Under the pieces are notes generated by a model. It saw nothing but the letters and a program-made list of their open reading frames with translations. It had not been told where the DNA came from and searched no databases. Of a DNA stretch of 64,000 nucleotides, positions 40,342-60,938 are shown in pieces. Positions within the stretch are counted from its first letter, which is position 1. Every line of letters starts with the position of its first letter. The DNA is taken from assembly GCA_964347035.1 (NCBI GenBank), contig CAYFXE010000002.1:17692-81691 (forward strand), given 5' to 3'. A program made the translations under genes and the position numbers. The stretch comes from an uncultured Eubacteriales bacterium (GTDB lineage Bacteria > Acidobacteriota > Aminicenantia > Aminicenantales > Aminicenantaceae).

Positions 40342-40821
40342 ATGCATAAAAAGACATTTATTCTTTTTTGTGCAGCTTTGCTCATACCCTCGTTGATTTA
40401 CGCCCAGCCTGAAGAGACAGGACATATCAAAGGTGTCGTAATTAATCCTGAAGGAAAGCCTCTGCCAGGTGTGACGGTTATCCTGGAGTCTTCTGCTATC
40501 GTTGTCCCCTCATTGGAAACAATAACCGACGAGAACGGTTTGTATAGTTTTGCTTCGCTTCCGCCCGGCGAGTATGAGTTGATTTATTCTCAACCGCATA
40601 GGGAAAAAGTCATACAAAGCGGCATACAGCTTTCGGCAGGAATGACGGTGACCATCGATGTCAACATGACCTGGAGAGCGACAGAAGAATCCATCTTCGT
40701 CAAGGCAAAAGCGCCGACCATCCACATAAAAACCACGAAGGGTGTGATGTCGTTGAGCATTGAATTCCTCCAGTCGCTTTCTTTTTTCCTGAATCTTGTT
40801 TCGAATATGCCCCATGACTAG
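40342..40821 (+). CDS. stand-alone signal peptide + CarboxypepD_reg-like domain; truncated paralog of the N-terminus of the next gene (possible gene fragment)
   Basis: It aligns residue-for-residue with aa 1-~150 of the 40971 product ('EGKPLPGVTVILESSAIVVPSLETITDENG' vs 'EGEPLPGVTVILKSPAIVVPSLETITNESG'). It then terminates where the plug domain would start. Confidence 0.6.
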   Translation: MHKKTFILFCAALLIPSLIYAQPEETGHIKGVVINPEGKPLPGVTVILESSAIVVPSLETITDENGLYSFASLPPGEYELIYSQPHREKVIQSGIQLSAGMTVTIDVNMTWRATEESIFVKAKAPTIHIKTTKGVMSLSIEFLQSLSFFLNLVSNMPHD

Positions 40822-40875
40822 GCGGGATTTCTGTATTTAAGATGGATTTTTCGGAAAATCGGAGGATGTAAGGCT

Positions 40876-40891
40876 TGCCACGAAAAATGCG
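40876..40891 (+). promoter_or_regulatory. degenerate copy of the sigma-54 promoter (-24 GG changed to GC)
   Basis: TGCCACGAAAAATGCG sits at the position homologous to 40246-40261 within the duplicated unit. Confidence 0.35.
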
Positions 40892-40970
40892 AGTTTTATG
40901 TTATCCAAATACCGTGGATACATTTACACATAAAAGAGGCATTTTTTGAAACCAAAAAAGGAGGTGTTTT

Positions 40971-43805
40971 ATGCTTAGAAAAATTTCTATTCTATTCTGT
41001 GCGGTTTTACTGATTCCCGCGCTTATTCATGCCCAAGCTGGACAGACAGGAGCCATCAGCGGAACGGTTCTCACTCCTGAAGGAGAGCCTCTGCCCGGTG
41101 TGACGGTTATCCTGAAATCCCCCGCTATTGTAGTGCCTTCGCTCGAAACAATCACCAACGAGAGCGGCATGTATCGTTTTGTCTCGCTTTCTCCTGGTGA
41201 ATACGAGTTGACCTATTCTCTACCTGGAGTGGAAAGAGTGGTCCGACGTGGTATTCAGGTCTCAGTAGGAATGACGGTGACCCTCGATGTCAACATGACC
41301 TTGAGGACGACCGATGAATACATCGTCGTCGAAGGTCAAGCGCCGACCATTGACAAGATGAACACGAAAGGTGTGACCTCGTTGAATGTTGAATTCCTCC
41401 AGTCGATCCCGTCTGCCCGTCAATTGAATGATTATTTCAACATGGCTCCTGGGGTCACAGGCAGTGTTGCCCATGGAAGCTCGACCAAAGAGAATTCCTA
41501 CAACCTGGACGGAGTGAACATCGCTGATCCAGATACAGGGACCCAACTTGTCTTCTTTGGGATGGATGTTATGGAGGAGATCTCCATCCAGAGTGGTGGT
41601 CTTTCGGCTGAATACGGAAGTGTCAAGGGCGCTGTGATCAACGTCATTTCCAAATCAGGAGGAAATACTTACCACGGATCGGCCAGCTTCTATTACAACC
41701 ACGAGAAGCTCCAATCCGATAACACAGAAGGAACAGGAGTCGAGGGAACGAGTGGTAACCAGTGGGAGTACGAACCCGTGCTCACTTTCGGAGGCCCACT
41801 ACTCAGGGATAAGCTCTGGTTTTTCACCAACATGAGCTTCTGGAGATCCTCTTACTTTATCAACGGCTATCCAGCCGATGAACCTGACAACCCTATTGCC
41901 ATCAAAGAGATGAGACCTTATCCTTACCTCAAATTCACCTTCCAACCCAACCAGGCCAATAAATTCGTCGTTTCCTACAACTACTCCGACAGGAGATTAG
42001 ACCACAGATTTGCTGCTTGGAACCAGACAGAAGGTGTTACAGCCATCCAGAAAGGACCTGCCCATGTTTTCAATTTCCACTGGAACAGACAATTCAATGC
42101 GAACCTGTTTACGGAATTTAAAGTGGCTGTTATAAGAAGCAACCTGATATTCAAAGGAAAAGACCCTAACCAGGGATACAGGCTAGATGTCGAGACTGGG
42201 ATCTGGAGCGGGTCCTATTTCAGGGCCCTGGATGAGAATCCGCGTAACCGCTATCAGTTCAACGCCAACGCCACGGCCTTTGTCGATGACCTGGCCGGTT
42301 CACACGAGTTGAAGATCGGCGGCGAACTTCAGTTGGGAAGGACAGGTTGGAAAATCGACTTCAGCCGAGATCCTCAGACCGGATTAAGCTATATGATCGA
42401 TTTCCCGGAGTATTTTGAACAATTCGGCCTCTATAATTATGGCTATTACATCGTTGACTTCGAGAGGAAAGAAGGATTCAACAATGTCGGTCTGTATGTC
42501 AACGATGCCTGGTCCCCCACAAAATGGCTGACCGTGAACTTAGGAGCCAGGTTCGAGTACAACGCCACCATCTGGCCGCCGCAGATGGAGGAGGAAGGTC
42601 CTCAGGAGTTCATGGGTTTATCCTACAACCGGTCGATCACCGAGACGATGACGCCGATGAAATGGGTCAACCTCGTGCCAAGGCTGGGTATCATCATCGA
42701 TCCCTTCAAGAAAGGATCCACCCTTATTAAGGCTTCCTACGGCCGGTACATCCAGCCGAACATCACCGAATGGGTTAACCTCGGACATCCGAACGGATGG
42801 TTTTATTATGCGCAACGGTATGACTGGGAAGGCAACCTTGTTGGTGATCCTTATGCTATCAATCTCCCTGGTGGCCAGACGGTAGGATATCCAGGCTACA
42901 ACAACGGTAAACTCAAAGCCCCTTATGTGGACGAAGTCACCGTCGGGATTGAGAGGGAACTTTTCGAGAACTGGTCTTTAGGCCTCCGCTACATCAAAAA
43001 GTGGGATCGGAATCTCATCGAGAATGTGGATGCGGCTCAACTGGATATGGATGCCCTTCTGAATGATGGCGAACTCGTCTGGACCAACTGGGAACTCGTG
43101 ACAGCCATCGATCCTTACGATGACAAGGAAGTGACCTTCTGGGATTGGATCAATCCATATCTCCCTAACGAGGTTTACATCATCAATCCTCCAGGAGCAG
43201 AGAGGGATTATGATGGCCTGGAGTTCAAGCTGAGTAAACGGTACAGCGCCGGCTGGCAGGTCCATCTGACCTATGTCTACCAGAAATCCACGGGATTGAT
43301 CCCGACTGCCGATTCCCAATCCGGACAAGAAGCCAACGGTATGAGAGGTACATCCGGTCTTTATGAAAATCCCAATGCCCACTATAACGCCGAAGGGCGC
43401 TTTCCGAGAGAAAGACGTCACATGCTGAAGCTCCACGGTTTGGTGAAAGGGCCTCTGGGCATCAATCTTTCCGGATATTTTTCGGTGATGAGCGGCCGCC
43501 GGTACACGAGAAGAGTCTCCAGTGCTGGACTCGGCCTTAACTTGTACACAGATGTTGTGACCTTTGCCGAGCCATTAGGGGGTCAAGGATATCCGACTTT
43601 AACCAACCTGGATTTGAGATTGGAAAAAGAATTTCGCATCAAAGGCGTAAGACTGAGTGTCTTCGGTGATGCGTTCAACGTTTTTAACGACAACGCTGTG
43701 ACAGTAGTTCGGACGATCTCCAACAGAACGAGTTACGAATTCAAAGAGCCGAGAACAATCGTACCTCCGCGCATATTCCAACTCGGAGCCAAGATCGAGT
43801 TTTAA
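40971..43805 (+). CDS. CarboxypepD_reg-domain TonB-dependent-receptor-like outer-membrane protein (paralog 1)
   Basis: Signal peptide; N-terminal carboxypeptidase-regulatory-like beta-sandwich; plug-like 'ENSYNLDGVNIADP'; long beta-barrel region; C-terminal 'QLGAKIEF'. Confidence 0.8.
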   Translation: MLRKISILFCAVLLIPALIHAQAGQTGAISGTVLTPEGEPLPGVTVILKSPAIVVPSLETITNESGMYRFVSLSPGEYELTYSLPGVERVVRRGIQVSVGMTVTLDVNMTLRTTDEYIVVEGQAPTIDKMNTKGVTSLNVEFLQSIPSARQLNDYFNMAPGVTGSVAHGSSTKENSYNLDGVNIADPDTGTQLVFFGMDVMEEISIQSGGLSAEYGSVKGAVINVISKSGGNTYHGSASFYYNHEKLQSDNTEGTGVEGTSGNQWEYEPVLTFGGPLLRDKLWFFTNMSFWRSSYFINGYPADEPDNPIAIKEMRPYPYLKFTFQPNQANKFVVSYNYSDRRLDHRFAAWNQTEGVTAIQKGPAHVFNFHWNRQFNANLFTEFKVAVIRSNLIFKGKDPNQGYRLDVETGIWSGSYFRALDENPRNRYQFNANATAFVDDLAGSHELKIGGELQLGRTGWKIDFSRDPQTGLSYMIDFPEYFEQFGLYNYGYYIVDFERKEGFNNVGLYVNDAWSPTKWLTVNLGARFEYNATIWPPQMEEEGPQEFMGLSYNRSITETMTPMKWVNLVPRLGIIIDPFKKGSTLIKASYGRYIQPNITEWVNLGHPNGWFYYAQRYDWEGNLVGDPYAINLPGGQTVGYPGYNNGKLKAPYVDEVTVGIERELFENWSLGLRYIKKWDRNLIENVDAAQLDMDALLNDGELVWTNWELVTAIDPYDDKEVTFWDWINPYLPNEVYIINPPGAERDYDGLEFKLSKRYSAGWQVHLTYVYQKSTGLIPTADSQSGQEANGMRGTSGLYENPNAHYNAEGRFPRERRHMLKLHGLVKGPLGINLSGYFSVMSGRRYTRRVSSAGLGLNLYTDVVTFAEPLGGQGYPTLTNLDLRLEKEFRIKGVRLSVFGDAFNVFNDNAVTVVRTISNRTSYEFKEPRTIVPPRIFQLGAKIEF

Positions 43806-43830
43806 GGGCTAGTAAAACTCGGTCGGAAAA

Positions 43831-43861
43831 GGGAGGCTCTTTTGAGTCTCCCTTTTTTTTT
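43831..43861 (+). terminator. rho-independent terminator
   Basis: GGGAGGCTC-TTTT-GAGTCTCCC followed by a T9 run. Confidence 0.75.
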
Positions 43862-43885
43862 GATAGAATACCGGTTGATAAGTTA

Positions 43886-46360
43886 ATGAAAAAAAGACTT
43901 TGTTATCAGACTTTTATTTCTCTTACTGTTATCATTGCGCTTATTATGTTTGATGGCTGTCAGAAGGAAACAGAGACCTTCAGGATCACTGGAGAAACAG
44001 ATTACAATCTCCTCATCATAACTTTGGACACGACCCGGGCGGATCGAATCGGCGCTTATGGGTATGTGAAAGCAGAGACCCCTTATATTGACAGCCTTGC
44101 TCAATCCGGAATACTGTTTAAGAATTGTTATGCTTCTGTGCCTCTAACTCTTCCCTCACACGTGACTCTTTTTACCGGCAGAGAGCCGATCGCCCATGGA
44201 GTCCGGAACAACGGCACATATGTCTTAAGACAGGAAGAAAATACCCTGGCTGAAGCCATGCAGGGCCTGGGCTACAAGACTTTTGCCGTCATTGCCTCCT
44301 TCACTCTTCACTCGAAATTCGGGTTGAGCCAGGGGTTCGAGGTGTATGACGACTCTCTCGACTTCAACATAGCTGCTAACAACATAAGAACGGAAATCAG
44401 AGCAGATAAAGTGTATGCCAAGTTTAGAAGCTGGTTCGAGAAAAACCATGGTCAGAAATTTTTTTCCTGGGTTCACTTCTACGACCCGCACAGCCCCTAC
44501 GACCCTCCTCCTGAATATAAGTCAAGGTTCAGTGACGATCATTATGATGGGGAAATCGCCTATATGGATGGGTTCGTCGGCCGAATCATCCAAGACCTGA
44601 AGTCCAAAGGAATTCTGGATAAAACGTTGATCATCGTTGCCGGGGATCATGGTGAGGCCTTCGGAGAGCATAAAGAATACGGGCACGGTATTTTCTGCTA
44701 CGAAGAAAGTCTCAAAGTCCCGCTAATTGTCAGTAATCAAGTGATATTTAAGGAAGAGAACAGAGTGATTTCCCAAAGGGTTAAATTAGCAGACATCATG
44801 CCGACAGTGCTCGAGCTGTTTGGATCGGACACGCCTCAAAATATCCAGGGAGAAAGCCTAGCGCCGCTCCTGTTTAGAGGAGAGGGAAGTCATGAGACTC
44901 AGATTTATGTAGAAAGCCTGTTCGGGAAAGAAGACATGGGGTGGGCTCCCCTGACAGGAATGATTCTAGGCGATCATAAATACATCTCGCTGCCGACTCC
45001 TGAATTGTATGATTTAGCGAGCGACTCTGAGGAGAGGACTAATCTTTTTGAAGTGAAGACGGCTCTCGCCAAAGAAATCGATGAAAGACTGAGTCAGTAT
45101 ATTCAAGTCCAGGCAGAATCCGGAACCGGGACTCGAAGGTCGCTGACAGCAGCGGATAGAGAAAGATTGGAGTCCCTGGGCTACGTCTCTCCTTTTTCCG
45201 AAAAGTCAAAAAGAGAAATAGACCCTAAAAACGGAATCGATCTGTTGAATGATGTCCTTGCCGTCAAGGAGCTCATTGATGAGGGAAATCTAGAGGAGGC
45301 CAAAAAGAAGCTGCCCGATCTCCTGGAATCGGAAAAAGGAGTCGGGATCCCTCCGTTTTACGATAACCTAATCAACATGTACCGAGATCAGGGGGACATG
45401 GACAAGGCGATTCAGATCTTGGAAAAAGCCGTCCAACAGTTTCCGGCGAAAAAAAGATTCCGGGTCAACCTGGCCCTGTTCTATCTTGAGGCAGGCAAAG
45501 TTCAGGAGGCCGAAAGGCTGAGCTTAGCTATAGTCGACGAATATCCCGATGTTGCCCAAGCCCACAGCCTCCTCGCCTTGATATATAAAGGAAAGGGGGA
45601 GCTCGAAAAGGCTGTTTCTTATTATCTGAAGGCAAGGGAGATTGAGCCCGCCAATGTCTTGCTCAACCTGAATCTGGCCGAGGTAGAGTTAGAAAGAGGA
45701 ACTCGGCTCAAAGCTGTCGAGCTGCTTGATTCACTCGTCCAAAACGATGTGCTGATGGAAGAACCCGACAGCTCGAAAGTGAGGATTCGGCTGGGGGTTT
45801 TATTGGCGAGAGGAGGCGAGTATGAGCGGGCCATCGATCTCTTCTTAAAAATCATTGGAAATAACAATGCTGATGCCGAGGTCTGGACTCATCTAGGTCT
45901 ATCCTACTTCAACAAGGGAGATCTCGAAAAAGCCCAGGTTGCCTACGACGAGGCTCTGAAGTTGGACAGCAAAAATGCCTTGGCTCTGAGCAGTTTGGGA
46001 ACACTCAATCTTTCTTTATTCAGGGCCGAGAAAAACAGAGAATACTATAATCAGGCCCTTAACTTCTACCAGAGAGCCATCGAGACCGACCCGAATCTGG
46101 CCTCTGCTCACAACGGGATTGCTGTTGCCTACAGGTTTGCTAACAAGAATGAGTTGGCCGTTTCTCACTGGAAGAAAGCCATCGAAGCGAAGCCGGACTT
46201 TACCAACGCCTACATCAACCTTGGTATAACGTTGATTAACTTGAGACAAAAAGAAAAAGCTCTCGAGTACCTCCACCGCTGCCAGGAGAAATACTTCTCC
46301 CGTATGAACCGTGAAGATCAAAAACAACTCCTTGAATTAATCGCCGAAGCCAAGAACTAG
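43886..46360 (+). CDS. sulfatase-like (alkaline-phosphatase superfamily) enzyme fused to a long C-terminal TPR array (paralog 1)
   Basis: 'LLIITLDTTRADRIG', 'PLTLPSHVTLFTGR' and 'VAGDHGEAFGEH'. About 8 or more TPR-like repeats in the C-terminal half. Confidence 0.8.
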   Translation: MKKRLCYQTFISLTVIIALIMFDGCQKETETFRITGETDYNLLIITLDTTRADRIGAYGYVKAETPYIDSLAQSGILFKNCYASVPLTLPSHVTLFTGREPIAHGVRNNGTYVLRQEENTLAEAMQGLGYKTFAVIASFTLHSKFGLSQGFEVYDDSLDFNIAANNIRTEIRADKVYAKFRSWFEKNHGQKFFSWVHFYDPHSPYDPPPEYKSRFSDDHYDGEIAYMDGFVGRIIQDLKSKGILDKTLIIVAGDHGEAFGEHKEYGHGIFCYEESLKVPLIVSNQVIFKEENRVISQRVKLADIMPTVLELFGSDTPQNIQGESLAPLLFRGEGSHETQIYVESLFGKEDMGWAPLTGMILGDHKYISLPTPELYDLASDSEERTNLFEVKTALAKEIDERLSQYIQVQAESGTGTRRSLTAADRERLESLGYVSPFSEKSKREIDPKNGIDLLNDVLAVKELIDEGNLEEAKKKLPDLLESEKGVGIPPFYDNLINMYRDQGDMDKAIQILEKAVQQFPAKKRFRVNLALFYLEAGKVQEAERLSLAIVDEYPDVAQAHSLLALIYKGKGELEKAVSYYLKAREIEPANVLLNLNLAEVELERGTRLKAVELLDSLVQNDVLMEEPDSSKVRIRLGVLLARGGEYERAIDLFLKIIGNNNADAEVWTHLGLSYFNKGDLEKAQVAYDEALKLDSKNALALSSLGTLNLSLFRAEKNREYYNQALNFYQRAIETDPNLASAHNGIAVAYRFANKNELAVSHWKKAIEAKPDFTNAYINLGITLINLRQKEKALEYLHRCQEKYFSRMNREDQKQLLELIAEAKN

Positions 46361-46423
46361 TTTCCTCTTAATTCAAATTAATCCCGCATTTGGTTTTAGA
46401 GAATATCATTCCCTCTCCATTCT

Positions 46424-46655
46424 GTCATTCCTGCGAAGCTTGTGCCTGCGTAGGCAGGAAACCTTACCTTCGTCATTCCTGCGTAAGCAGGAAACCAGGC
46501 TTGTCCGCGTGAAGACAGGAATTCAATTTTTTTTCACGTTGAGAGGAGACTGGATTCCCGCTTTCGCGGGAATGACAGAGAGGCGCGGGAATGACCTGAG
46601 ATAAGACTAGATTCCCCCTACCTGCCTGCACGATTCCAGGCTTCGAAGGGATGAT
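46424..46655. repeat. cluster of GTCATTCCTGCG / GGAATGAC hairpin repeats (about 6 units, mixed orientation)
   Basis: GTCATTCCTGCGAAGC..., CGTCATTCCTGCGTAAGCAGGAAACCAGGCTTGTCC..., GGATTCCCGCTTTCGCGGGAATGAC, GCGGGAATGAC. Confidence 0.85.
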
Positions 46656-46699
46656 ATACGCTCGTGTCTGTATTTTGAGCAAATTTCATGCGATTTAAT

Positions 46700-46720: not shown

Positions 46721-46796
46721 CTTCGTATATTGATTATTCCAAATAATTTCAGTAACTTAGAGTCTTTTCATCCCTTCTTTTTGCTGGGTTATGTAT

Positions 46797-46813
46797 AAAA
46801 AATAGACAAATCC
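46797..46813 (+). promoter_or_regulatory. proximal upstream half-site
   Basis: AAAAAATAGACAAATCC. ATAGACA lies 61 nt upstream of the promoter GG. Confidence 0.45.
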
Positions 46814-46861
46814 CTCCTTCAGTATCTGTATTCCCCTGAGGAAACCCTCTATGATCACGGT

Positions 46862-46877
46862 TGGCATAATTTTTGCT
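46862..46877 (+). promoter_or_regulatory. sigma-54 (-24/-12) promoter motif
   Basis: TGGCATAATTTTTGCT, with GG and GC spaced 12 nt apart. Confidence 0.75.
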
Positions 46878-47094
46878 CAATAGAGGTCGATGTTCATGTT
46901 CCAGCGGAGAAGTATCAAACCAGATTTATTGCAGGTGTTCGAACCCAAAGAAACAGGACACAAGAGAAAAAAAAAGAAAAAGAAGAGAAAGGAGGTGAAT
47001 ATGAAAAAGGACAAAAAAAATAGGTGAGCCAAAAAGAGGAGTATATATCAATGACTTATTCAAAAAATTCTCATTACCAAGAAAGGAGGAAAAA

Positions 47095-50040: not shown

Positions 50041-50066
50041 GCTGATTTTACTCCATTCATCCCGGG

Positions 50067-50099
50067 CCCCTTCCGCTTCGGCGGAAGGGGCTTTTTTTT
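50067..50099 (+). terminator. rho-independent terminator
   Basis: CCCCTTCCGC-TTCG-GCGGAAGGGG followed by a T8 run. Confidence 0.85.
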
Positions 50100-50153
50100 G
50101 GCCTGTATCGATGCTAAAATTTGGATGTTCTGAGTGAGAAAGTAAATTTTAAA

Positions 50154-52301: not shown

Positions 52302-54386
52302 ATGAAGATTTATAAATGGATATGTTGTTTTTTTATTATTCTTCTTTTTATCCGGCCGATTTACCCTGCAGAAAAGATGAAAGAAGAAGGTCTTTCCGAA
52401 AAGTACAGAGAATGGCTTAAAGTAACGAGTTACATCATCCTTCCCCAGGAAAAAGATGTTTTTTTGCAGCTTGCTTCAGATAGAGACAGGGATCTCTTCA
52501 TCCAGGCCTTCTGGCGCCACCGGGATCCTACTCCAGGAACGCCTCAGAATGAATACAAACAGGAGCATTTGAAACGTTTCGCCTACGCGAATGCCTATTA
52601 TAAGCGAGGAACTCCCCGCGAGGGATGGATGACCGATATGGGAAAAATACATATCATCCTCGGGCCTCCTTCGAGCATCGAGAGGTTTGACAGCGAGGCA
52701 GGTATCCATCCTTGTCAAGTGTGGTATTATTATGGAGACAAGACAAAGGGACTTCCTACTTATTTTGCCATCATTTTCTTTCAACGAGGAGGAGCTGGAG
52801 AATATAAACTGTACAACCCCACTACTGACGGCCCTGGCAGTCTTTTGATCGGAGGGTATGGGCGGGGTGTGGCGGATTACCGAGCGGTATACCAGAAGAT
52901 CAAGGAACTCGCTCCGAGTTTGGCCGGAGTGGCCATCTCGATGATCCCTGGTCAGATCCCCCCTGATTATCAACCCACTCCCAGGAATAACATCATCTTG
53001 GCCAATATTTTTGAGTCCCCGAAAAAGGAGTTAACTCCAACCTATGCCACTCACTTCTTGAACTATAGAGGGATCGTCAGTACCGAGTATTTGACCAATT
53101 ACATCGAGAGCTTCGGTCTTGTGGCTTTGACTCGAGATCCTGTTCTGGATATGAATTTTGTTCATTTCTCCATCAATCCCAAAAGCTTTTCTGCTGATTA
53201 CTTTGAGCCCAAAGATCAGTATTTCTGTAATTTTCAGCTCAACGTCAGTGTTAGGCACGATCAGGAAGTGATCTTTCAGTATTCGAAGGATTTTCCTTTC
53301 TATTTCGAACCTTCCGCTATGGAGAGGATAAAAGGAAAAGGAATTTCCATCCAGGATTCTTTCCCTCTGATCGAAGGAAAGTACAGGTTGATTGTTCTCA
53401 TTCAAAATTCCGTGGGCAAAGAATTCAGTGTTTTCGAAAAAGATGTTAATGTTCCAGAGTCAACGGGATTACCCGGGATAATCAGTCCTGTTCTCGGCTT
53501 CAAAGCTGAGCAACAAAGAGATCCTCTGCACATGCCTTTCAAAGTTGCAGAAACAAAAATACTCGTTGACCCGGAAAATACGATTTCTCCATCTGAAGAA
53601 GTGGTTCTGTTATTTAATCTCGTCAACATATCAGATGAGATGAGGGAATCAGGAAAGATCAGGATTCTCGTCAACGGCCTTGGTCACAGGGACCCGATAA
53701 AAAAATCTTTTACCCTCGAACTGAAAACATACCCCTCTAAAAAAACTCTGGTCATCACCCACTCCATCCCGGCTAGAGAGTTTTCCCCGGATTACTATGA
53801 GATGAGTTTAATCCTTGAAGACGGTGAAGGAAATACAATCGACGAGAAAAAAACACAATTTATCCTTTCTTCCCAAGCAGAGGTTCCTCACCCCGTTACC
53901 CTGGCCAAGTCATTCCCTGTATCAAACAACTTTTTGTATTCTTATTCTTTTGCCTACCAATATGACAAAGTGAAAAACTTCCAGAGCGCAGAGGAATATT
54001 ATGAAGATGCTTACAGGCTGAAACCCGATTACAACAGGGGAATTGTTGAATATTCGAACTTCCTGCTTAAGATAAGAAAATTCGAGAAAAGCCTGGATTT
54101 TATCGAAAAAGTCAGCGACGATGAGGAAATGAAATTTCAGTATCACCTGGTAAAAGGGAAAGCTTTACTTGGAATGGAAAAGTATCAAGAGGCTATAGAA
54201 TCATTGCTCGAGGGGAATAAAATCTACAACAGCGATGTTGGACTCCTAAACTCTCTTGGTCTATGTTACTACAAAATCGGCAGAAAAGAAGAAGCCTTGG
54301 ATGTCCTCAAAGCTTCCCTTCGGTTAAATGCCAATCAGAAGGATATCAAAAAGCTCATCGATGACATCGAGAAAAACCACGATTAA
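52302..54386 (+). CDS. GWxTD-domain protein with C-terminal TPR repeats
   Basis: Signal peptide; 'REGWMTDMGKIHIILGPP' is the GWxTD signature; TPR-like C-terminus. It starts 22 nt after the sulfatase-like gene. Confidence 0.75.
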   Translation: MKIYKWICCFFIILLFIRPIYPAEKMKEEGLSEKYREWLKVTSYIILPQEKDVFLQLASDRDRDLFIQAFWRHRDPTPGTPQNEYKQEHLKRFAYANAYYKRGTPREGWMTDMGKIHIILGPPSSIERFDSEAGIHPCQVWYYYGDKTKGLPTYFAIIFFQRGGAGEYKLYNPTTDGPGSLLIGGYGRGVADYRAVYQKIKELAPSLAGVAISMIPGQIPPDYQPTPRNNIILANIFESPKKELTPTYATHFLNYRGIVSTEYLTNYIESFGLVALTRDPVLDMNFVHFSINPKSFSADYFEPKDQYFCNFQLNVSVRHDQEVIFQYSKDFPFYFEPSAMERIKGKGISIQDSFPLIEGKYRLIVLIQNSVGKEFSVFEKDVNVPESTGLPGIISPVLGFKAEQQRDPLHMPFKVAETKILVDPENTISPSEEVVLLFNLVNISDEMRESGKIRILVNGLGHRDPIKKSFTLELKTYPSKKTLVITHSIPAREFSPDYYEMSLILEDGEGNTIDEKKTQFILSSQAEVPHPVTLAKSFPVSNNFLYSYSFAYQYDKVKNFQSAEEYYEDAYRLKPDYNRGIVEYSNFLLKIRKFEKSLDFIEKVSDDEEMKFQYHLVKGKALLGMEKYQEAIESLLEGNKIYNSDVGLLNSLGLCYYKIGRKEEALDVLKASLRLNANQKDIKKLIDDIEKNHD

Positions 54387-54387
54387 T

Positions 54388-54414
54388 CGTCTAATTTGTT
54401 AAAAAATTAGACAC
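54388..54414. promoter_or_regulatory. inverted-repeat upstream motif (candidate activator site)
   Basis: CGTCTAAT-N11-ATTAGACAC. TTAGACA lies 59 nt upstream of the promoter GG. Confidence 0.55.
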
Positions 54415-54464
54415 TTTTCCGGCAAATAATTCCCGATTTTCTTCATTACCCCGAGAATATCGCT

Positions 54465-54480
54465 TGGCATGTATTTTGCT
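54465..54480 (+). promoter_or_regulatory. sigma-54 (-24/-12) promoter motif
   Basis: TGGCATGTATTTTGCT, with GG and GC spaced 12 nt apart. Confidence 0.75.
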
Positions 54481-54615
54481 AAATAAAGAGTGAGGAACTC
54501 TATAAAGAAAATGCTGAGCATCTATTCGAAGCCAGTGATGGATATATTGTCAAAGATATACAGCAGAAACAAATTGTAATAGGAGATCACATGATGTCCG
54601 TATGGAGGAAGAAAA

Positions 54616-55299
54616 ATGCAGGATGACGTCAAAGAGGTTTTAAACATCATTAGGGAAAGGATTAAAAATGATCCGACGAATTCGAAGATGGTCTGTACCT
54701 ACGGCATCCTGCTCATTGAAGTTGGGCATTATGATGCGGCTGTGGAGATTCTGCGAGAGGGCTTGACGTACAAACAGGATGATGCAGAATTGTGGAGTTA
54801 TTTGGGATTGGCTTACTGGCGGAAGGATGATCAAAAAAATGCGATCACCTCTTACCAGAAAGCCATTCTTTTAAACAAGCATTACCCAGTTGTTTTTTTT
54901 AATCTAGCGTCTCTTTATCTTTCCCGATACGTCGAGTCGAAAAACGAAGTCTATTTCAAAAACTCCGTTAAAAATTTTAAGAAGGCGATCGAACTCGATC
55001 CCTGCTATGCTTCAGCCTACAATGGTTTGGGAACTGCGTATGTCAAAGCAAACAATATCGAAGCGGCCATCAATTGTTGGGAAAAGACTATCAAGATCAA
55101 ACCTGAGTTCTCATCTGCCGTTTATAATCTAGCTCTCGCTTATCTGGCCAAAGGGAATAGCACCAAGGCTTTGAAGTTCTTTAACAAGTACAAGAAGAAT
55201 CACTATGAACATCTGACTCAGGGAGAAAAAGACCAGTTCGATGCTTTGATCAAGAAATGCCAGAACAACAGGAAAAGAGGTGACACCGCCTACGGATAA
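54616..55299 (+). CDS. stand-alone TPR protein, paralogous to the C-terminal TPR module of the sulfatase-like proteins
   Basis: 'FKKAIELDPCYASAYNGLGTAY...AAINCWEKTIKIKPEF...YNLALAYLAKGN' vs 'FKKAIELDPGYAEAYNGLGSAY...AAIQSWERALELKPDY...YNLGLSYLSKGN' in the 50154 product. GGAGG SD site; no signal peptide. Confidence 0.75.
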   Translation: MQDDVKEVLNIIRERIKNDPTNSKMVCTYGILLIEVGHYDAAVEILREGLTYKQDDAELWSYLGLAYWRKDDQKNAITSYQKAILLNKHYPVVFFNLASLYLSRYVESKNEVYFKNSVKNFKKAIELDPCYASAYNGLGTAYVKANNIEAAINCWEKTIKIKPEFSSAVYNLALAYLAKGNSTKALKFFNKYKKNHYEHLTQGEKDQFDALIKKCQNNRKRGDTAYG

Positions 55300-55406
55300 G
55301 ACATTCATGACCGTGATTGGAACAGTGCAATCGAGAAAGATGAACAAGAAGTAACGGAGGAAAGGCTATAAAGGGAGGCCTCAAAAAATTTAAAAAGGAG
55401 GGATGA

Positions 55407-55469
55407 ATGAAGAAGATGATCCTCCTCATCTTGCTTCTCATCCTGCTGTTCTTATCTTTAGGAATTTAA
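55407..55469 (+). CDS. candidate 20-aa hydrophobic micro-protein
   Basis: AAAGGAGGG lies 4 nt upstream of the ATG. The product is MKKMILLILLLILLFLSLGI. It was not in the ORF track because it is under 60 aa. Confidence 0.3.
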   Translation: MKKMILLILLLILLFLSLGI

Positions 55470-55544
55470 TCGAACAGCAGGTGTCATTAGGGGATTAGAT
55501 AATGCTCCCCTGAGTATTATCTGAGCTATTTGGAGTGGCCGTCT

Positions 55545-56084
55545 CTAATTCTTTAGTTCCTGGCCGCAGTGGGGGCAGCACCGCCAGGTGCTCTCCACCG
55601 GCTTGTCGCACTCAGGGCAAACAGCCTGAAGCTTAGTCCCGCAATGAGGACAAAACGTAAAGCCCATCTCGACAGGGTTTTGGCAGTTCGGACAGGGTTG
55701 TGTCACTTGGACTGTTTTGGGTGCGGATATCGTGTCAGCCCGGACAATCAGATAAATCAATAATCCTATCAGATTGCCGATAAAGACAAGCAGTGCCCAC
55801 AACACACCGTTCATGCCTCGGCGCTCGGCATCCCGGTAAACCCAGACAATCACAAAAATCCAGAGGACGAGCAGCGCCAGCGTCACCACCCGGAGCGGAT
55901 TAAAATGGATAAGCCCCATTGGACCTATATGGATGGACCGAATGTCCGGCGTCCGGACGGCATGCCAGACACTGGGGAATATACCTAAAGGCGAGAGGAT
56001 AAAAGGTGTCATTTGCAGGACAATTAACAAGATAAGGACGACCAGCAGAATAAGCCCGACTGTTTTTGCGGTTGAAGTCGCCAT
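55545..56084 (-). CDS. membrane protein with C-terminal double zinc-ribbon
   Basis: Three TM helices, including a 'WVYRDAERRGMNGVLWALLVF' PLD-nuclease-N-like segment. C-terminal 'CPNC...CPHC...CPEC...CPHC'. Confidence 0.65.
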   Translation of the reverse strand: MATSTAKTVGLILLVVLILLIVLQMTPFILSPLGIFPSVWHAVRTPDIRSIHIGPMGLIHFNPLRVVTLALLVLWIFVIVWVYRDAERRGMNGVLWALLVFIGNLIGLLIYLIVRADTISAPKTVQVTQPCPNCQNPVEMGFTFCPHCGTKLQAVCPECDKPVESTWRCCPHCGQELKN

Positions 56085-56155
56085 GTCATACCTCCTATTC
56101 CATGCCAGGATCCGATCCCGAGCACGGCATTGAAAATCTCGGCACTGTTGCCTGA

Positions 56156-56647
56156 TTAAGTCATGTTTAAATAGTGGCTTCTCCCTCGGAATTTCCTGAG
56201 AATAAGCGGTGAAAAAAAGAGCATCACCGCATTCTGGATCATAAGCGATAGAGTTACTATTGCTTGTAATGAGAGGATCTCTTCTGCGGCCAGCTCCTTC
56301 AGTAAAGGCAGTATCAGTATCACAGTTAGGACAACGAGAGATACTAAGGCCAGCCAGATATACGCAGGAATGGATGTGGCCTTGATTCGACTGATAAACC
56401 CTTTCTCATTCGGATAAGGAGTCTTTATGGCGGTGTGACACATGAGTTGAGTTCGATGTATCAACTCTTCAGAGGGAACAGGAGCTTTTGTCTCCTGAAG
56501 AAAAAGCCGGATTTTTTTCAGATCCTCTTCGAAACAGGCACAATCTTCACATTGGGCAACATGCTTCTCAACCAGGGACAACCTGTCTTCCTCCAGGGTT
56601 TCATCTGATAAGTCGATAAGCCATCGTTGGATGTCTTTACACTTCAT
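56156..56647 (-). CDS. zf-HC2-type anti-sigma factor
   Basis: N-terminal 'C...H...C..C' motif ('EKHVAQCEDCACFEED') plus two TM helices. ATGA overlap with the sigma gene. Confidence 0.75.
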   Translation of the reverse strand: MKCKDIQRWLIDLSDETLEEDRLSLVEKHVAQCEDCACFEEDLKKIRLFLQETKAPVPSEELIHRTQLMCHTAIKTPYPNEKGFISRIKATSIPAYIWLALVSLVVLTVILILPLLKELAAEEILSLQAIVTLSLMIQNAVMLFFSPLILRKFRGRSHYLNMT

Positions 56648-57270
56648 GTTGTCCTCTCTTCCAGGGAATAGGGTTTGGGTTTATAGGCGGAAAGATCTCG
56701 TTGGAGCCCTTTCACTGCCCGGTACATCAAGGATTTGACCGTCCCTATCGGTATCTTGAGCATCTCGCTGATTTCTGTTTGTTTGAACCCCTCGATTTCC
56801 TTGAGAACAAAAATGAGACGTTGGCGTTCGGGAAGTTGGGTTAGGGCTTTTGATAGAGCCATACTCAAATCTTTCTGATCCTCCGCTTTAGAATTTTTGC
56901 ATACCTTTTTTCCCGTCGATACAGATACTATGTTTTCTCCTTGCTTGAAAGCTTTGTATTTTTGGAGGAGGAATAGCCGCCTGATCCTTTTCTTCCGAAG
57001 AGCATCGCGATGCAGGTTGGCGGCTATGGTCAAGATCCAGGATATGAATGTACTTTCTTTCGAGATTTTCGGAAAATTTTTTACCACTCGCAACCATGTC
57101 TCCTGAAAAAGATCTTCTGCCTCCCCTCTGTTTTGTGTCAGATAATATGCAAAACGGAAGACTGCGGTTTTGTGTTCATCGTACAGGGCATCGAATTCGG
57201 CGGAGCTAAGAGAATCTGTTTTCTGGACAGAATTTCCAATCTCAGCCTTCAACACATTCTCCATTCGCAT
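56644..57270 (-). CDS. ECF-type sigma-70 family sigma factor
   Basis: Region 2 reads 'AEDLFQETWLRVVKNF' and region 4 reads 'GFKQTEISEMLKIPIGTVKSLMYRAVKGL'. Confidence 0.85.
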   Translation of the reverse strand: MRMENVLKAEIGNSVQKTDSLSSAEFDALYDEHKTAVFRFAYYLTQNRGEAEDLFQETWLRVVKNFPKISKESTFISWILTIAANLHRDALRKKRIRRLFLLQKYKAFKQGENIVSVSTGKKVCKNSKAEDQKDLSMALSKALTQLPERQRLIFVLKEIEGFKQTEISEMLKIPIGTVKSLMYRAVKGLQRDLSAYKPKPYSLEERTT

Positions 57271-57480
57271 CCAGTTTCATTAGATAGGACGTTTGAGACA
57301 GGAAATAGTTTTGGTCAAAAAAAATTCTGTTAATTCCTTCAATTTCATGATTTTGAAAAAAGCAATGATTTTTAGTTTCGATCACTCCAATTATAAAAAA
57401 ATGATGACGAAGATCAAACCAGAAGAAATGAGATTTAATTCACCAGATTGGACATTGATGGGAAGAAGGTTAGATGGGAA

Positions 57481-57501
57481 ATTGTCTAATTTTTAGACAA
57501 T
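57481..57501. promoter_or_regulatory. perfect palindromic upstream motif (candidate activator/regulator site)
   Basis: ATTGTCTAA-TTT-TTAGACAAT. It lies in the divergent region between the ECF sigma gene and the third receptor-like gene, 101 nt upstream of the promoter GG. Confidence 0.6.
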
Positions 57502-57592
57502 TTTCCGTAAATAATGAGCCAAGTTTTAAATAAATCCTCCTGTCCTTTCTCTATCCCCCTGAAAAGAAAAGAGTTAATTTATCTCATCATCT

Positions 57593-57608
57593 TGGTACAT
57601 AAATTGCA
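57593..57608 (+). promoter_or_regulatory. sigma-54 (-24/-12) promoter motif
   Basis: TGGTACATAAATTGCA, with GG and GC spaced 12 nt apart. It lies 295 nt upstream of the 57903 ATG. Confidence 0.65.
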
Positions 57609-57902
57609 TATAAATGCATTTGTATAAATCATGCTTTAGAGGAGAGGCGGGCTGAAACATACACAACAGCCCTGATCTTTATCATTTGAGGTACCAAATT
57701 TTATGATCTGGATAATCAAGACGAAAAAAGGAGGTGTCGAAAGGAATATTGATTCAAACAAATGGTCTCAAGGTTTGGAATACAAGGCTTGATTTTGTCC
57801 TTGATTCCAGGGTACAGGTCTAAAGGTTCTACTCTGCACAGTCGTGTAGAGTGGGAAGGCCACGACTCCCGAAGATTCGGGAGAAGGGGGAAATGAAAGC
57901 AC

Positions 57903-60900
57903 ATGAGAAAAAACTTCATTGGAATTTTTGTTATGTTGTCCATCTTTTTTATCTCCGCAAACATGCTGTCTGCGCAGTCGCGAACCGGAACCCTGAAGGT
58001 TATCGTCGTCGATGATACGGGCAACGTTGTCCCAGGCGTTTCGCTCGTACTCACAAGTCCTGTCATGATGGGTGAAAAGACGCTGATCACCGATCCCTCC
58101 GGCGGAGCCCTGTTCATCAATCTGACTCCGGGAACGTATGAACTCAAATCCAGCATCCCGGGATTTCAGGAGAAGGTATCCCAGAATATCAGCATATCAT
58201 TGGATAAACAGACTCTTCTCCAGGTAGAGATAAAGCCGGCAGTAATACAGGAATCGGTGACCGTAACGGCTGAAGTTCCCGCTGTAGACCCTACAAAATC
58301 GGTTATTGCCGAACATGTGAGGCATGAGACGGTCGAGTCCCTTCCGATCGCTCGCGACTTCGTCAGCTATTTGCAATTGGCTCTTGGGGTAAACATGGTC
58401 CCCAACTCTCAGGGACGAGATATGCCGCAGGATCCAGCTGGAAAGGGTGGACAGAACTATAATGACCGAGGCCTCCAGGGAGCGGACTCCGTCACAGGAG
58501 GAGGCAAGAGAGGGTCTCGTGATAATCTCTATTTCCTTGATGGTATGAACATCACAGGATTATCTTCTCAGACGGCCCTGATGAAATTCAACAACGAAGT
58601 CATCCAGGAACAGGAGTTAATGACCTCTGGTGTTCCGGCAGAATACGGAGGTGGAAAGGGTATTGTGGGAAACATCGTCACCAAATCCGGAGGGAATAGG
58701 CTTTCGGGTTCGGCGAACTTTTATGTGCAACCCAAAGGATTTTTCTTGCCGTTCGGAGGAAACGAATACGATAAGGCGGATAAACCCGATACTCTCATTA
58801 ATGAATCAACCATGCTAGAAGGGTACAAAGACAACGCCTATGACACAGCTGCGACTCTGGGTGGACCAGTCATTAGGGACAAATTTTGGTTCTTCTTGTC
58901 AGGCCAGTACAGAAAAAATTCGGACACGTTCGCTCTTTCGGAATCTGCTTCTTCAACCAGGGAAGAGGCGGATTATTCTCAGAAACGGGTAGGATTTTTT
59001 GGAAAAGTCACTTTTAGACCGACAGGCAACGATTCACTAACTCTTATGTACTTCCTCGACACCTTTGATATTCTTGGAGAGAGAGACACAAACACTATCA
59101 AAATCCGACAGAGATCCCGAGAATACGACTACAATGTCTTCAGCGGCTATTACCAGAGAGTCTTAGCAAACAACATGATCTTCGATATTCGTTTTGGACG
59201 TTACATCAGGAAATATTTACTAGCCCCTCGTTTTACAGATGAAGGCACCCCCGATACTGTTTATTACCTGCCGGGCTCATACCCATCCATCGAGAATTAC
59301 ACCTTTGGCGGCTACAAAAACGGTTATGATGAAAAAAACACCAGAGATCAATTCAGCGGTTCACTCGAGTGGTATCTCAGTAATCACCGGGTCAAGTTGG
59401 GGTTAATGTACTCGAATGAAAATGACAAAGACGACAGACACTTTTATTATGGCGAGCAACGTAATTCTGTAGATTTTGACCTAGCTGGGGTGACGCTCGG
59501 AGAGCTGCTTGATGCGGGAATTTGGCCTGAGAGCGAAATGAATGAGCGGTTGATTCCCCGTTTGAACAACAATTGGGATTCGACTTCTGAGGCCTTTGAT
59601 TTGAATAATGATGGAGTCGTGACTCGGGAAGAGCTGGAGAAAGCCACCTTTTCGGACTTCAACGAGAGAGGCCTGAATTTCATGAGAAGCTTGGACGCAA
59701 AAACAGGGCCGAACAAAGTTCGTGCAGCGCGTTACATGGGATACCTGATGGATGACTGGAGAATTAGCGACTATTTCACTCTCAATGCCGGAGCTCGAAT
59801 TGAAAAACACAATTATTATACCTCTGAAGGTGATGTCATCCTCAAGATGCCCTTTAGGATTTTGCCTCGAGTCGGTTTGGTCTGGAATATCGGTGCGAGA
59901 GGAACACACAAATTGACGGCTTTCTATGGGCAGTTTTCCGATCCCATAGACTTTTCCATGGTTCATTTCGCAGGAAACATTTCAGGACGCGTTCAGCATG
60001 AACAGATCTGGCTCAACGGAGACTGGTATACTTTTCGAGTTCGAGGATCGGCCGAGCACAGAGATGCTGTTTGGACTCCGAATACCAGGGATGCTCTATC
60101 CCATGAATTCTCCTTGACACATGAGATCGATTTGGGTGAGCAGCTTGTCGTCTCCAGTCAGGTTTATTACCGGATGGACCGAAGAGTCATCGAAGATTAC
60201 GACCTCTTCACGTATGTAGAAAATTACGAAGGCGATCCCGTTTGGGGACATCTGGATCTTTCTTTCGAGGATTTTGGATATCCATCCTCCGGCCCGCCTG
60301 GAGAGGCCAACTACTTCCTTTCCAACCTTATCGGCGCCAAAAGAAATACGGTAGGCTTCGATTTTGAAGTATCTAAGCGCTTTGAAAATGGTTCTTTCGT
60401 AGCGGGTCAGTATTCGTTCAAACGAGCAAGAGGAAACAGTCAATCTGATTCAGACGCCGATCTCCAGGGGGATTTCATTGGGCTCGACCCCAGAAATGAC
60501 TGGATGTATGGACCCACTCCCGGAACCATTCCCCATAAGATCAAAGTCTTCGGAACCTACAGAACTCCATTTGGCTTGGATATTGGAGCCCTGTTCTACT
60601 GGAACTCTGGATTGATTTTCACAGAATCCTATGATTTCTATCCCGGTCTCTACAGCATCTATTACAATTGGCCGTTGAACGAAGAAGAAACTCTGTTTGC
60701 CAAGACAGGACAGGAAAAGGCACCTGGTTATTACCAGATCGACCTGAAGTTCAATTACACGTTAAGGCTTGTAGAGAGGGCATCTCTCCAGCTCTTCTGT
60801 GATATTTACAACCTCACCAACCATCAGCAGCCCATTGATCTCCAGTATGCACGAAATGATCAACAGTGGGATTACAAGGATACCGTCGAGATCCTGATGC

Positions 60901-60938
60901 CCATGAGGTTTTATGTAGGAGCCAGAATAAGATTCTGA
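57903..60938 (+). CDS. CarboxypepD_reg-domain TonB-dependent-receptor-like outer-membrane protein (paralog 3)
   Basis: Signal peptide; 'GTLKVIVVDDTGNVVPGVSLVL'; plug-like 'NLYFLDGMNITG'; C-terminal 'YVGARIRF'. Confidence 0.8.
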   Translation: MRKNFIGIFVMLSIFFISANMLSAQSRTGTLKVIVVDDTGNVVPGVSLVLTSPVMMGEKTLITDPSGGALFINLTPGTYELKSSIPGFQEKVSQNISISLDKQTLLQVEIKPAVIQESVTVTAEVPAVDPTKSVIAEHVRHETVESLPIARDFVSYLQLALGVNMVPNSQGRDMPQDPAGKGGQNYNDRGLQGADSVTGGGKRGSRDNLYFLDGMNITGLSSQTALMKFNNEVIQEQELMTSGVPAEYGGGKGIVGNIVTKSGGNRLSGSANFYVQPKGFFLPFGGNEYDKADKPDTLINESTMLEGYKDNAYDTAATLGGPVIRDKFWFFLSGQYRKNSDTFALSESASSTREEADYSQKRVGFFGKVTFRPTGNDSLTLMYFLDTFDILGERDTNTIKIRQRSREYDYNVFSGYYQRVLANNMIFDIRFGRYIRKYLLAPRFTDEGTPDTVYYLPGSYPSIENYTFGGYKNGYDEKNTRDQFSGSLEWYLSNHRVKLGLMYSNENDKDDRHFYYGEQRNSVDFDLAGVTLGELLDAGIWPESEMNERLIPRLNNNWDSTSEAFDLNNDGVVTREELEKATFSDFNERGLNFMRSLDAKTGPNKVRAARYMGYLMDDWRISDYFTLNAGARIEKHNYYTSEGDVILKMPFRILPRVGLVWNIGARGTHKLTAFYGQFSDPIDFSMVHFAGNISGRVQHEQIWLNGDWYTFRVRGSAEHRDAVWTPNTRDALSHEFSLTHEIDLGEQLVVSSQVYYRMDRRVIEDYDLFTYVENYEGDPVWGHLDLSFEDFGYPSSGPPGEANYFLSNLIGAKRNTVGFDFEVSKRFENGSFVAGQYSFKRARGNSQSDSDADLQGDFIGLDPRNDWMYGPTPGTIPHKIKVFGTYRTPFGLDIGALFYWNSGLIFTESYDFYPGLYSIYYNWPLNEEETLFAKTGQEKAPGYYQIDLKFNYTLRLVERASLQLFCDIYNLTNHQQPIDLQYARNDQQWDYKDTVEILMPMRFYVGARIRF

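Follow-up and report, generated by a model that had tools for sequence, protein, structure and literature searches.

The TonB-dependent transporter Oar of Myxococcus xanthus is needed to secrete the PopC protease across the outer membrane, and the Oar subclass accounts for 28% of TonB-dependent transporters overall and is dominant in Bacteroidetes (PMC6434023). In the SusC/SusD loci of Bacteroidota, the gene of a CarboxypepD_reg-type transporter is directly followed by that of a helical-repeat envelope (lipo)protein, hydrolases are encoded in the same locus, and the module is multiplied into paralogous copies. FusA/FusC and YddB/PqqL import a large substrate that is then handled by a dedicated, nearby-encoded periplasmic enzyme, which in these systems is an M16 protease acting on iron-protein substrates. 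The locus described here lies in a 64,000-nt stretch of contig CAYFXE010000002.1 (the window, in which all coordinates are given) from an uncultured bacterium of the Aminicenantes, and combines genes for three Oar-type TonB-dependent transporters (T1, T2, and T3), two sulfatase-fold enzymes with tetratricopeptide repeats (TPR; S1 and S2), and a GWxTD protein (G). By the names attached to its homologs, the organism belongs to Candidatus Aminicenantes in the phylum Acidobacteriota. The Aminicenantes are abundant uncultured bacteria of sediments and the subsurface. The gene set is tentatively interpreted, as the best-supported reading, as an uptake-plus-periplasmic-processing module built around the Oar-type transporters in a predicted sigma-54 regulon.

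The T proteins have the same domain order as Oar, namely a signal peptide, a CarboxypepD_reg domain, a plug with a TonB-box-like motif, and a large barrel, and are of similar size (944-1011 aa). However, the similarity is at the level of Pfam families only, neither a PopC-like cargo nor a dedicated Ton cluster is adjacent, and the T genes are predicted to be sigma-54-driven and are followed by S and GWxTD genes. The locus shares with the SusC/SusD loci the order of transporter and helical-repeat envelope protein, the presence of hydrolases, and the multiplication into paralogs, but it has neither a SusD family domain nor glycoside hydrolases, and its sigma-54 control contrasts with the hybrid two-component or extracytoplasmic function (ECF) regulators of those loci. 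A 1:1 stoichiometry of transporter and partner is also unlikely, unlike in SusC/SusD, because a strong terminator lies between T and S. The nearest functional analogies would be FusA/FusC and YddB/PqqL, with polysaccharide-utilisation loci a looser one: the T1 model has its best structural matches in FusA and YddB, and import of a large substrate followed by processing is the mechanism proposed here. The partners differ, being in this case an alkaline-phosphatase-superfamily enzyme fused to TPR and a GWxTD protein, and no FusB-like TonB is adjacent.

Gene Content and Transporter Architecture

Gene content was established from the open reading frame (ORF) listing together with Pfam and NCBIfam scans. 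The T, S, and G genes are as follows.

40971-43805, + strand: T1, Oar-type TonB-dependent transporter, 944 aa (Pfam, AlphaFold2, structure match)
43886-46360, + strand: S1, lipoprotein-type alkaline-phosphatase-superfamily enzyme with C-terminal TPR (Pfam Sulfatase fold; T-L-P-S-H nucleophile motif)
47095-50040, + strand: T2, Oar-type TonB-dependent transporter, 981 aa (Pfam)
50154-52280, + strand: S2, paralog of S1 with a T-T-L-P-S-H motif and a shorter TPR domain (alternative TTG start at 50121)
52302-54386, + strand: G, secreted "long GWxTD" protein with GWxTD, two beta-sandwich domains, and a C-terminal TPR
57903-60938, + strand: T3, Oar-type TonB-dependent transporter, 1011 aa, without an S or G partner

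An earlier interpretation of this DNA, made from its letters alone (the sequence-only reading), had placed outer-membrane-protein genes at 40971, 47095, and 57903, sulfatase-like TPR genes close behind the first two, and a GWxTD-TPR gene tightly behind the second enzyme gene. The domain scans bear out this layout, with gaps of 80 nt between T1 and S1, 80 or 113 nt between T2 and S2 (depending on the S2 start), and 21 nt between S2 and G. The description of these genes as reiterated cassettes needs qualification: they are paralogous, but T1, T2, and T3 are pairwise only 24-27% identical and S1 and S2 32% identical, so the cassettes are ancient paralogs, and a recent tandem reiteration was ruled out.

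Each of the three transporters has a signal peptide, a CarboxypepD_reg domain (PF13620; E 7e-17 in T1, 9e-14 in T2, and 1e-10 in T3), and a barrel matching OMP_b-brl_4 (145 bits) or TonB_dep_Rec_b-barrel (33 bits, cut-off 27), while the Pfam Plug match on its own falls below the cut-off. TonB-box-like motifs (DEYIVVEG in T1, and EEITVIGE and ESVTVTAE) are found between the N-terminal extension and the plug, and all three proteins end in Phe. A search of the T1 sequence against solved structures returned TPR or noise only. The prediction of the barrel-plus-plug structure, which had been suggested as a check, was run for T1: the AlphaFold2 model, built from 30 homologs, has a mean predicted local distance difference test (pLDDT) of 83.3 and a pTM of 0.77, and its best matches among solved structures are all TonB-dependent importers, led by FusA (4zgv, E 2e-35) and YddB (6ofr, E 2e-34), with alignments of ~850-950 columns and target TM-scores of 0.66-0.70. 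T1 is thus modelled as a plugged TonB-dependent transporter.

Membership of the SusC/SusD systems was ruled out. The SusC/RagA model TIGR04056 gave 30 bits against a cut-off of 368 bits in T2, over residues 30-150 only, and no match in T1 or T3, and no SusD Pfam family was found in S or G. Domain scans of the window genes also agree with the previous observation that no SusD-like gene, ATP-binding cassette (ABC) importer, or complete Ton system lies beside the cluster; neither TonB nor ExbD was found in the window, which contains only a weak MotA/ExbB-like ORF at 1881-2978, 40 kb off.

Sigma-54 Promoter Motifs, Candidate Activator Sites, and Terminators

The window was scanned with the sigma-54 promoter pattern TTGGCAY-N5-TTGCW, allowing at most one mismatch, and gave 5 matches against 1.18 expected. 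All of them (32063, 40245, 46861, 54464, and 57592) are on the + strand, intergenic, and ahead of + strand genes. The palindrome TGTCTA-N5-TAGACA has 5 matches against 1.64 expected, 4 of which are situated 68, 70, 68, and 110 nt upstream of the motifs at 40245, 46861, 54464, and 57592, respectively. These elements and the candidate regulators are listed below.

38188-40059, + strand: sigma-54 enhancer-binding protein, FHA-GAF-AAA+ (with GAFTGA at residue 403)-HTH_8 (Pfam)
40178-40194, + strand: palindrome TGTCTAAATATTAGACA, candidate upstream activator site, 68 nt before the -24 element (same spacing in locus L001 of a close relative)
40245-40261, + strand: sigma-54 -24/-12 motif TTGGCACAAAAAATGCA of unit 1
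40875-40891, + strand: degenerate promoter duplicate adjoining T1, TTGCCAC...ATGCG, with the GG of the -24 element lost
46792-46808, + strand: palindrome TGTATAAAAAATAGACA, candidate upstream activator site, 70 nt before the -24 element
46861-46877, + strand: sigma-54 motif TTGGCATAATTTTTGCT of unit 2
54397-54413, + strand: imperfect palindrome ...TAGACA, 68 nt before the -24 element
54464-54480, + strand: sigma-54 motif TTGGCATGTATTTTGCT of unit 3 (identical motif in L001)
57483-57499, + strand: perfect palindrome TGTCTAATTTTTAGACA, 110 nt before the -24 element
57592-57608, + strand: sigma-54 motif TTGGTACATAAATTGCA of unit 4
61300-63934, - strand: histidine kinase and NtrC-type sigma-54 response regulator, a possible alternative or additional regulator

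The sequence-only reading had placed a sigma-54 motif ahead of each transporter gene. Three intact motifs support this, with a correction for T1: the copy that adjoins it (reading TGCCAC) is degenerate and probably dead, and its intact promoter is located upstream of a 159-aa ORF at 40342. In L001, whose S1 ortholog is 84% identical, palindrome and promoter are kept at the same spacing of 68-70 nt although the surrounding intergenic DNA has diverged; the counterpart of the palindrome at 46792 is TGTCTAAAAATTAGACA, likewise 70 nt before the -24 element.

When other genomes were searched for the strict motif TGGCAY-N5-TTGCW, it was found upstream of 46 of 54 T genes in the sense direction and in none of the same 54 regions in antisense, and within 350 nt downstream of T in just one case of 62. 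All 118 S genes and all 27 G genes lack a sigma-54 motif of their own. Sigma-54 control of the T genes across genomes is therefore strongly supported at the level of motifs, where a promoter with -24 GG and -12 GC, an upstream site, and an AAA+ activator with GAFTGA were all found; no rpoN gene is present in the window. The locus would thereby provide a whole TonB-dependent transporter family under sigma-54 control, with a recognisable activator site.

Orthologs of the FHA-GAF activator are encoded directly upstream of T, with the same palindrome, in L001 and L090. In L090, the ortholog immediately precedes the T-S-G cluster, and the locus carries TGTCTAAAAATTAGACG and TTGGCACGTCTTTTGCT; other lineages have TCCAA-N4-TTGGA-type palindromes instead. 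Because of this co-occurrence, seen in no more than two to three lineages, the leading candidate for the palindrome-binding activator is the FHA-GAF-AAA+ protein at 38188. The kinase and NtrC-type regulator pair at 61300-63934, convergent with T3, is another candidate for regulating the T genes; comparable pairs precede the GWxTD clusters in L074 (300-3892) and in several other Aminicenantes loci.

The strong terminator that had been noted behind each of the three T genes is present in all cases as an intrinsic hairpin.

43826-43861, + strand: intrinsic terminator after T1
50064-50093, + strand: intrinsic terminator after T2, with a 13-bp stem and T8
60957-60992, + strand: intrinsic terminator after T3

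A strong GC-rich hairpin with a T-run is found within ~75 nt of the stop codon of 30 of 31 T genes, whether or not an S gene is located downstream, and both this hard transcriptional stop and sigma-54 dependence appear to be family traits of these transporters. GGAGG Shine-Dalgarno sequences precede the T genes and a 227-aa TPR gene (54616), whereas S1, S2, and G have poor sites. Given the conserved terminator between T and S and these poor sites, the T-S-G cassette is not a simple operon, and S and G are probably expressed at sub-stoichiometric levels, via read-through or weak promoters.

The leader of T2, ~230 nt between the sigma-54 promoter and the start codon, contains a perfect Shine-Dalgarno sequence followed by an A-rich 8-codon mini-ORF, MKKDKKNR* (46988-47027), and similar mini-ORFs are seen in L001 (~13040-13090) and L090 (4530-4575). 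It could encode a leader peptide or act as a translational element.

Conservation of the Gene Set

Co-localisation of these families was examined from both ends of the module. In the S-anchored scan, one genome per species was searched with an S alignment, and the resulting 78 loci were annotated by phmmer with T, the S catalytic domain, the N-terminal region of G, and the activator as queries. Among the 49 loci of at least 15 kb, T was present in 32, G in 25, both in 23, and at least two S genes in 29, while 10 had none of T, G, or a second S. A co-directional S gene directly follows 18 of the 38 T genes in the S-anchored loci. In the G-anchored scan of metagenome contigs (38 loci of at least 12 kb), T was found in 31, S in 29, and both in 24. 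In almost all cases the genes stood on one strand in the order T, S, short G, and long G, with ~1 kb separating T from S, and in the annotated neighbourhoods this gap is occupied by a CarboxypepD_reg-TPR protein of ~308 aa. T, S, and GWxTD genes hence co-occur in the same order in many Aminicenantes genomes and metagenome contigs, which is the opposite of the absence elsewhere that the sequence-only reading had named as its refutation.

The canonical module consists of T (~980 aa), CarboxypepD_reg-TPR (~308), S (~710), short GWxTD (~305), and long GWxTD-TPR (~690 aa), and one genome carries two such modules in tandem. Within the window, T2-S2-G represents a reduced version of the module and T1-S1 a version with two genes, and T3 is a transporter on its own. 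A pair of the T1/S1 type was also found in a wholly different flanking context, with S 55% and T 71% identical to those of the window. The module is among the most conserved and most multiplied gene sets of the Aminicenantes.

The distance matrices of T and S correlate (r = 0.58, a value reached in 0 of 5000 permutations), a correlation to which shared phylogeny contributes. Strict co-evolution could nevertheless not be used as proof of a complex, since the subfamilies of T and S reassort.

In two distant Aminicenantes genomes (loci L003, 12574-21431, and L164, 12087-16462), the module is followed by the same block, namely an unknown protein of ~350 aa, YceG/MltG, RuvX, D-Ala-D-Ala ligase, and a 23S_rRNA_IVP protein.

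Sulfatase-Fold Enzymes with a Threonine Nucleophile

S1 and S2 consist of a Pfam Sulfatase domain (PF00884) and a long C-terminal TPR domain of ~350 residues, the latter being an addition to the architecture of described sulfatases. The family has >7000 detected homologs, for which the module offers a first genomic context, and S1 orthologs carry lipoboxes. By sequence, S is closest to soluble sulfatases of group S1 and to phosphonate monoester hydrolases, and its best match among solved structures is the choline-sulfatase 7oz8 (E 1e-35). The fold and the Asp and Asp-His metal ligands are shared with formylglycine sulfatases, phosphonate monoester hydrolases, and nucleotide pyrophosphatase/phosphodiesterases (NPP), and the signature x-x-P-x-x-x-x-x-x-T-G-x-x-P-x-x-H-G is kept. 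In contrast to the C/S-x-P-x-R of sulfatases, S has a Thr (sometimes Ser) and then a His: in alignments with 7oz8 and 7p24, Thr occupies the formylglycine position and His that of the Arg (T-L-P-S-H). The sulfate-binding Lys and His of GKWHLG are also lost, the region reading ASFTL. The nucleophile motif [TS]LP[AS]H is found in 105 of 120 homologs, and the metal ligands D48 and D254-H255, together with [T/S]88, are invariant or nearly so in 16 diverse homologs.

To our knowledge, Thr cannot mature to formylglycine, given the specificity of FGE and anSME. With Thr at the formylglycine position and His in place of Arg, S is not a canonical sulfatase, and that assignment was ruled out on the active-site residues. 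S has instead the residues of the Thr-nucleophile alkaline-phosphatase superfamily (NPP, LtaS, and EptA type): its nucleophile motif resembles the T-x-P-x-H of the phosphodiesterase family, Phosphodiest (PF01663) scores 58 bits over the nucleophile region, and NCBIfam gave weak matches to LapC/YejM and EptA. Judging from these residues, sulfated substrates are unlikely, and phosphoester chemistry is the better guess, as Thr followed by His resembles NPP; consequently, of the de-esterification of phosphorylated or sulfated polymers proposed in the sequence-only reading, the sulfated part is unlikely and the phosphoester part fits better. Annotations of "arylsulfatase" in Aminicenantes genomes should not be taken as sulfate-ester metabolism.

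GWxTD Proteins

G belongs to the GWxTD family (TIGR04514/PF20094), with a TIGR04514 score of 101.6 bits that is far above the cut-off of 28. G108, W109, T111, and D112 are invariant in 26 homologs, and full-length homologs are 53-65% identical across the class (best 120, excluding the closest relatives at 85-99%). In the AlphaFold2 model (mean pLDDT 74.6), two confident beta-sandwich domains and the TPR are accompanied by a GWxTD domain with pLDDT <50. A fold search gave generic tandem beta-sandwich matches (transglutaminase barrels and RbmA, TM-score at most 0.13) and TPR matches, and a sequence search against solved structures gave TPR or noise only.

An exhaustive search with the N-terminal 246 residues of G returned 7112 clusters at 50% identity, and the module provides a first genomic context for this family. 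Among the best 150 matches, P0474 joins GWxTD to a BlaR1-type M56 domain and to a TonB C-terminal domain, and P0441 joins it to Peptidase_M56. The fusion to a TonB C-terminal domain in P0474 indicates that GWxTD is periplasmic and in the company of TonB-dependent transporters, and the fusions in the two proteins suggest a trans-envelope signalling or energy-coupling context.

What distinguishes G from the family as described is the combination of GWxTD with two beta-sandwich domains and TPR, and its linkage to T and S is undescribed in the literature searched, where no paper mentioning GWxTD or the T-S-GWxTD combination was found; the previous statement that no described system has this composition agrees with that search. 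Searches on TonB or sulfatases in Aminicenantes, on sigma-54 with TonB and FHA, and on Oar in Acidobacteria yielded the Oar/PopC paper as the sole relevant result. What is undescribed is the composition, the lineage-wide sigma-54 and terminator design, and the re-tooled sulfatase fold; the parts come from known superfamilies, and a transporter working with accessory envelope proteins is a familiar logic.

Proposed Mechanism and Alternative Explanations

The gene content, the motifs, the fold of T1, the active-site residues of S, the conserved co-localisation, the promoters, and the terminators are directly supported by the results above. The palindrome-binding activator, the direction of transport, the substrate, and the formation of a physical complex, which we infer, would fit the following scheme. 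An enhancer-binding protein bound to TGTCTA-N5-TAGACA, ~70-110 nt upstream of the -24/-12 promoter, would switch on the T genes, and T would be made in large amounts owing to the perfect Shine-Dalgarno sites and strong terminators, with S and G produced at a low level through terminator read-through or weak sigma-70 promoters. T would import a bulky substrate in a TonB-powered manner, and S, as a metallo-enzyme with a Thr nucleophile and phosphoester-type chemistry, would process it in the periplasm with the assistance of GWxTD proteins, the accessory proteins possibly being tethered at the transporter via their TPR domains. Of the sequence-only reading, the co-localisation and the sigma-54 control are supported; the logic of an outer-membrane importer with a periplasmic esterase, also put forward there, is a matter of interpretation, and the enzyme is not a canonical sulfatase.

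Several observations weigh against uptake and processing. No Ton system is adjacent to the cluster, and no inner-membrane permease or ABC importer is conserved beside the module in the annotated neighbourhoods, so that no onward route for a substrate is visible. Co-transcription of T and S is only a possibility, as a strong terminator separates them, and their subfamilies reassort. Because T2-type transporters are found together with either S1-like or S2-like enzymes, a tight one-to-one complex is less likely. The lipobox is present in only ~20% of S homologs, so anchoring varies, and the GWxTD domain itself is poorly modelled, with generic fold matches only. The module is near-ubiquitous in Aminicenantes. 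The unusual conservation of the long GWxTD protein and the adjacency of the module to MltG/RuvX/Ddl in two distant genomes would suit a housekeeping role in the envelope better than a nutrient system, which would vary. These last three observations, as well as the lack of an adjacent importer gene, would fit a module for envelope biogenesis or remodelling, with S as the transferase or hydrolase of a polymer or lipid of the envelope, a TPR scaffold associated with the barrel, and T as the outer-membrane component. Thr/Ser-nucleophile relatives of S include LtaS, EptA, OpgB, BcsG, and YejM/LapC, and TPR-scaffolded trans-periplasmic assemblies with a barrel are represented by BcsC, PgaA, and AlgK/AlgE. 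Consistent with such a role, the nucleophile of S is Thr, as in the PF00884 phospho-transferases, the weak NCBIfam matches of S are to LapC/YejM and EptA, and three module members have TPR domains. However, S has no multi-spanning membrane domain of the kind by which LtaS, EptA, OpgB, and BcsG reach their lipid donors, its closest relatives are soluble enzymes and not LtaS or EptA, T1 is modelled as a plugged transporter and not as a 16-18-strand export porin, and neither a glycosyltransferase nor a polymer synthase is encoded in the window. The many S paralogs per cluster and >7000 homologs further suggest substrate diversification, and envelope remodelling is thus considered unlikely.

Export was also considered, as the locus provides a concrete case for the question of import versus export by Oar-type transporters. 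T, like the Oar of Myxococcus, would export Sec-delivered S and/or GWxTD proteins, and S at the cell surface would degrade external polymers. The architecture of T, with the CarboxypepD_reg extension, the plug with a TonB box, and the barrel, is that of the protein needed for PopC secretion, S and G carry signal peptides or lipoboxes, and a candidate cargo gene is directly downstream of the transporter gene. This architecture is not diagnostic, however, because the 28% of TonB-dependent transporters that have it are mostly importers such as SusC (PMC6434023). popC is not reported to be adjacent to oar, the best structural matches of T1 are all importers, T often occurs alone (as T3 does), 18 of 38 T genes elsewhere lacking an S directly behind them, and the GWxTD-TonB_C fusion indicates a periplasmic GWxTD, all of which makes export quite unlikely. 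It is very unlikely that the genes are not functionally coupled at all, with the T genes as separate sigma-54 transcription units and S and G nearby through lineage-specific synteny. The terminator behind 30 of 31 T genes regardless of S, the absence of sigma-54 motifs from S and G, the reassortment of subfamilies, and the lack of a partner for T3 are compatible with this explanation, but order and orientation are kept among relatives in which S is only 32-55% identical, as well as in unrelated flanking contexts, T occurs in 31 of the 38 G-anchored loci, mostly upstream and co-directional, the T and S distance matrices correlate beyond all permutations (with the contribution of phylogeny mentioned above), and T-S gaps of ~80-150 nt leave little room for independent regulation.

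A wider proposal, which is doubtful, regards T, CarboxypepD_reg-TPR, S, and the short and long GWxTD proteins as an unrecognised class of machine in which the periplasmic TPR proteins dock on the Oar-type barrel. Among the docked proteins would be a Thr-nucleophile enzyme recruited from the sulfatase fold and a GWxTD domain of the kind joined in other proteins to a TonB C-terminal domain. The machine would be either an Aminicenantes equivalent of the polysaccharide-utilisation locus acting on phosphoester-linked polymers or a system for Oar-like surface delivery of S, under a lineage-wide sigma-54 programme.

Other Features of the Window

Two further ORFs are associated with the sigma-54 units.

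40342-40821, + strand: 159-aa ORF, truncated tandem duplicate of the T1 N-terminus (signal peptide and CarboxypepD_reg)
54616-55299, + strand: 227-aa TPR protein without a signal peptide (ortholog in L001)

The 159-aa ORF is 65% identical in amino acids to residues 1-146 of T1, and the DNA is 74% identical over 484 nt at an offset of 630 nt. It was therefore rejected as an independent CarboxypepD_reg protein, being a T1 fragment from a 630-nt tandem duplication (40234-41405) that copied the T1 promoter and 5' end. This duplication is absent from L001, and from its sequence it appears comparatively recent and the sole such case in the region.

The 227-aa TPR protein is 47% identical to the C-terminal TPR domain of S2 and could be a cytoplasmic paralog of the periplasmic docking domain. 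With its own promoter and palindrome, both kept in L001, its gene appears to be a fourth sigma-54 unit of the set. It was rejected as an equivalent of the CarboxypepD_reg-TPR module member, to which it has only generic TPR similarity (24%). Genes for an ECF sigma factor, a zf-HC2 anti-sigma factor, and a double-zinc-ribbon membrane protein form a - strand operon (55545-57270) between this gene and T3; L001 has the latter two genes as well.

The sigma-54-like motif at 32063, upstream of which no convincing palindrome was found, precedes an operon (32063-38045) encoding a protein of 289 aa, a LolA-like/TP_0789-like protein (33186), a porin-like protein of 396 aa (33992), and an MMPL/RND transporter (35208). 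This operon is directly upstream of the activator gene, and the same synteny is observed in L001.

An Rfam scan covering 38-64 kb gave no known RNA family. Intergenic clusters of a REP-like palindromic repeat, TCATTCCYGCG-N3-GCRGGAA, occur in the window (10 matches against 0.13 expected), at 8856-8879, 22456-22564, ~31880-31920, and 46440-46575. Several copies lie in the spacer between S1 and T2, and the equivalent spacer of L001 is filled with the same kind of repeat.

Elsewhere in the window, overlapping ORFs at 18522-19097 and 18943-19482 encode a rubredoxin-like domain and a partial glutamate-synthase domain and may represent a frameshifted or split gene. A tricorn-like protease with PD40, PDZ, and S41 domains (1091 aa; 5364-8639, - strand) and a multihaem cytochrome with c554/MtrC-like motifs (13537-15261, + strand) are unrelated to the T-S-G module.

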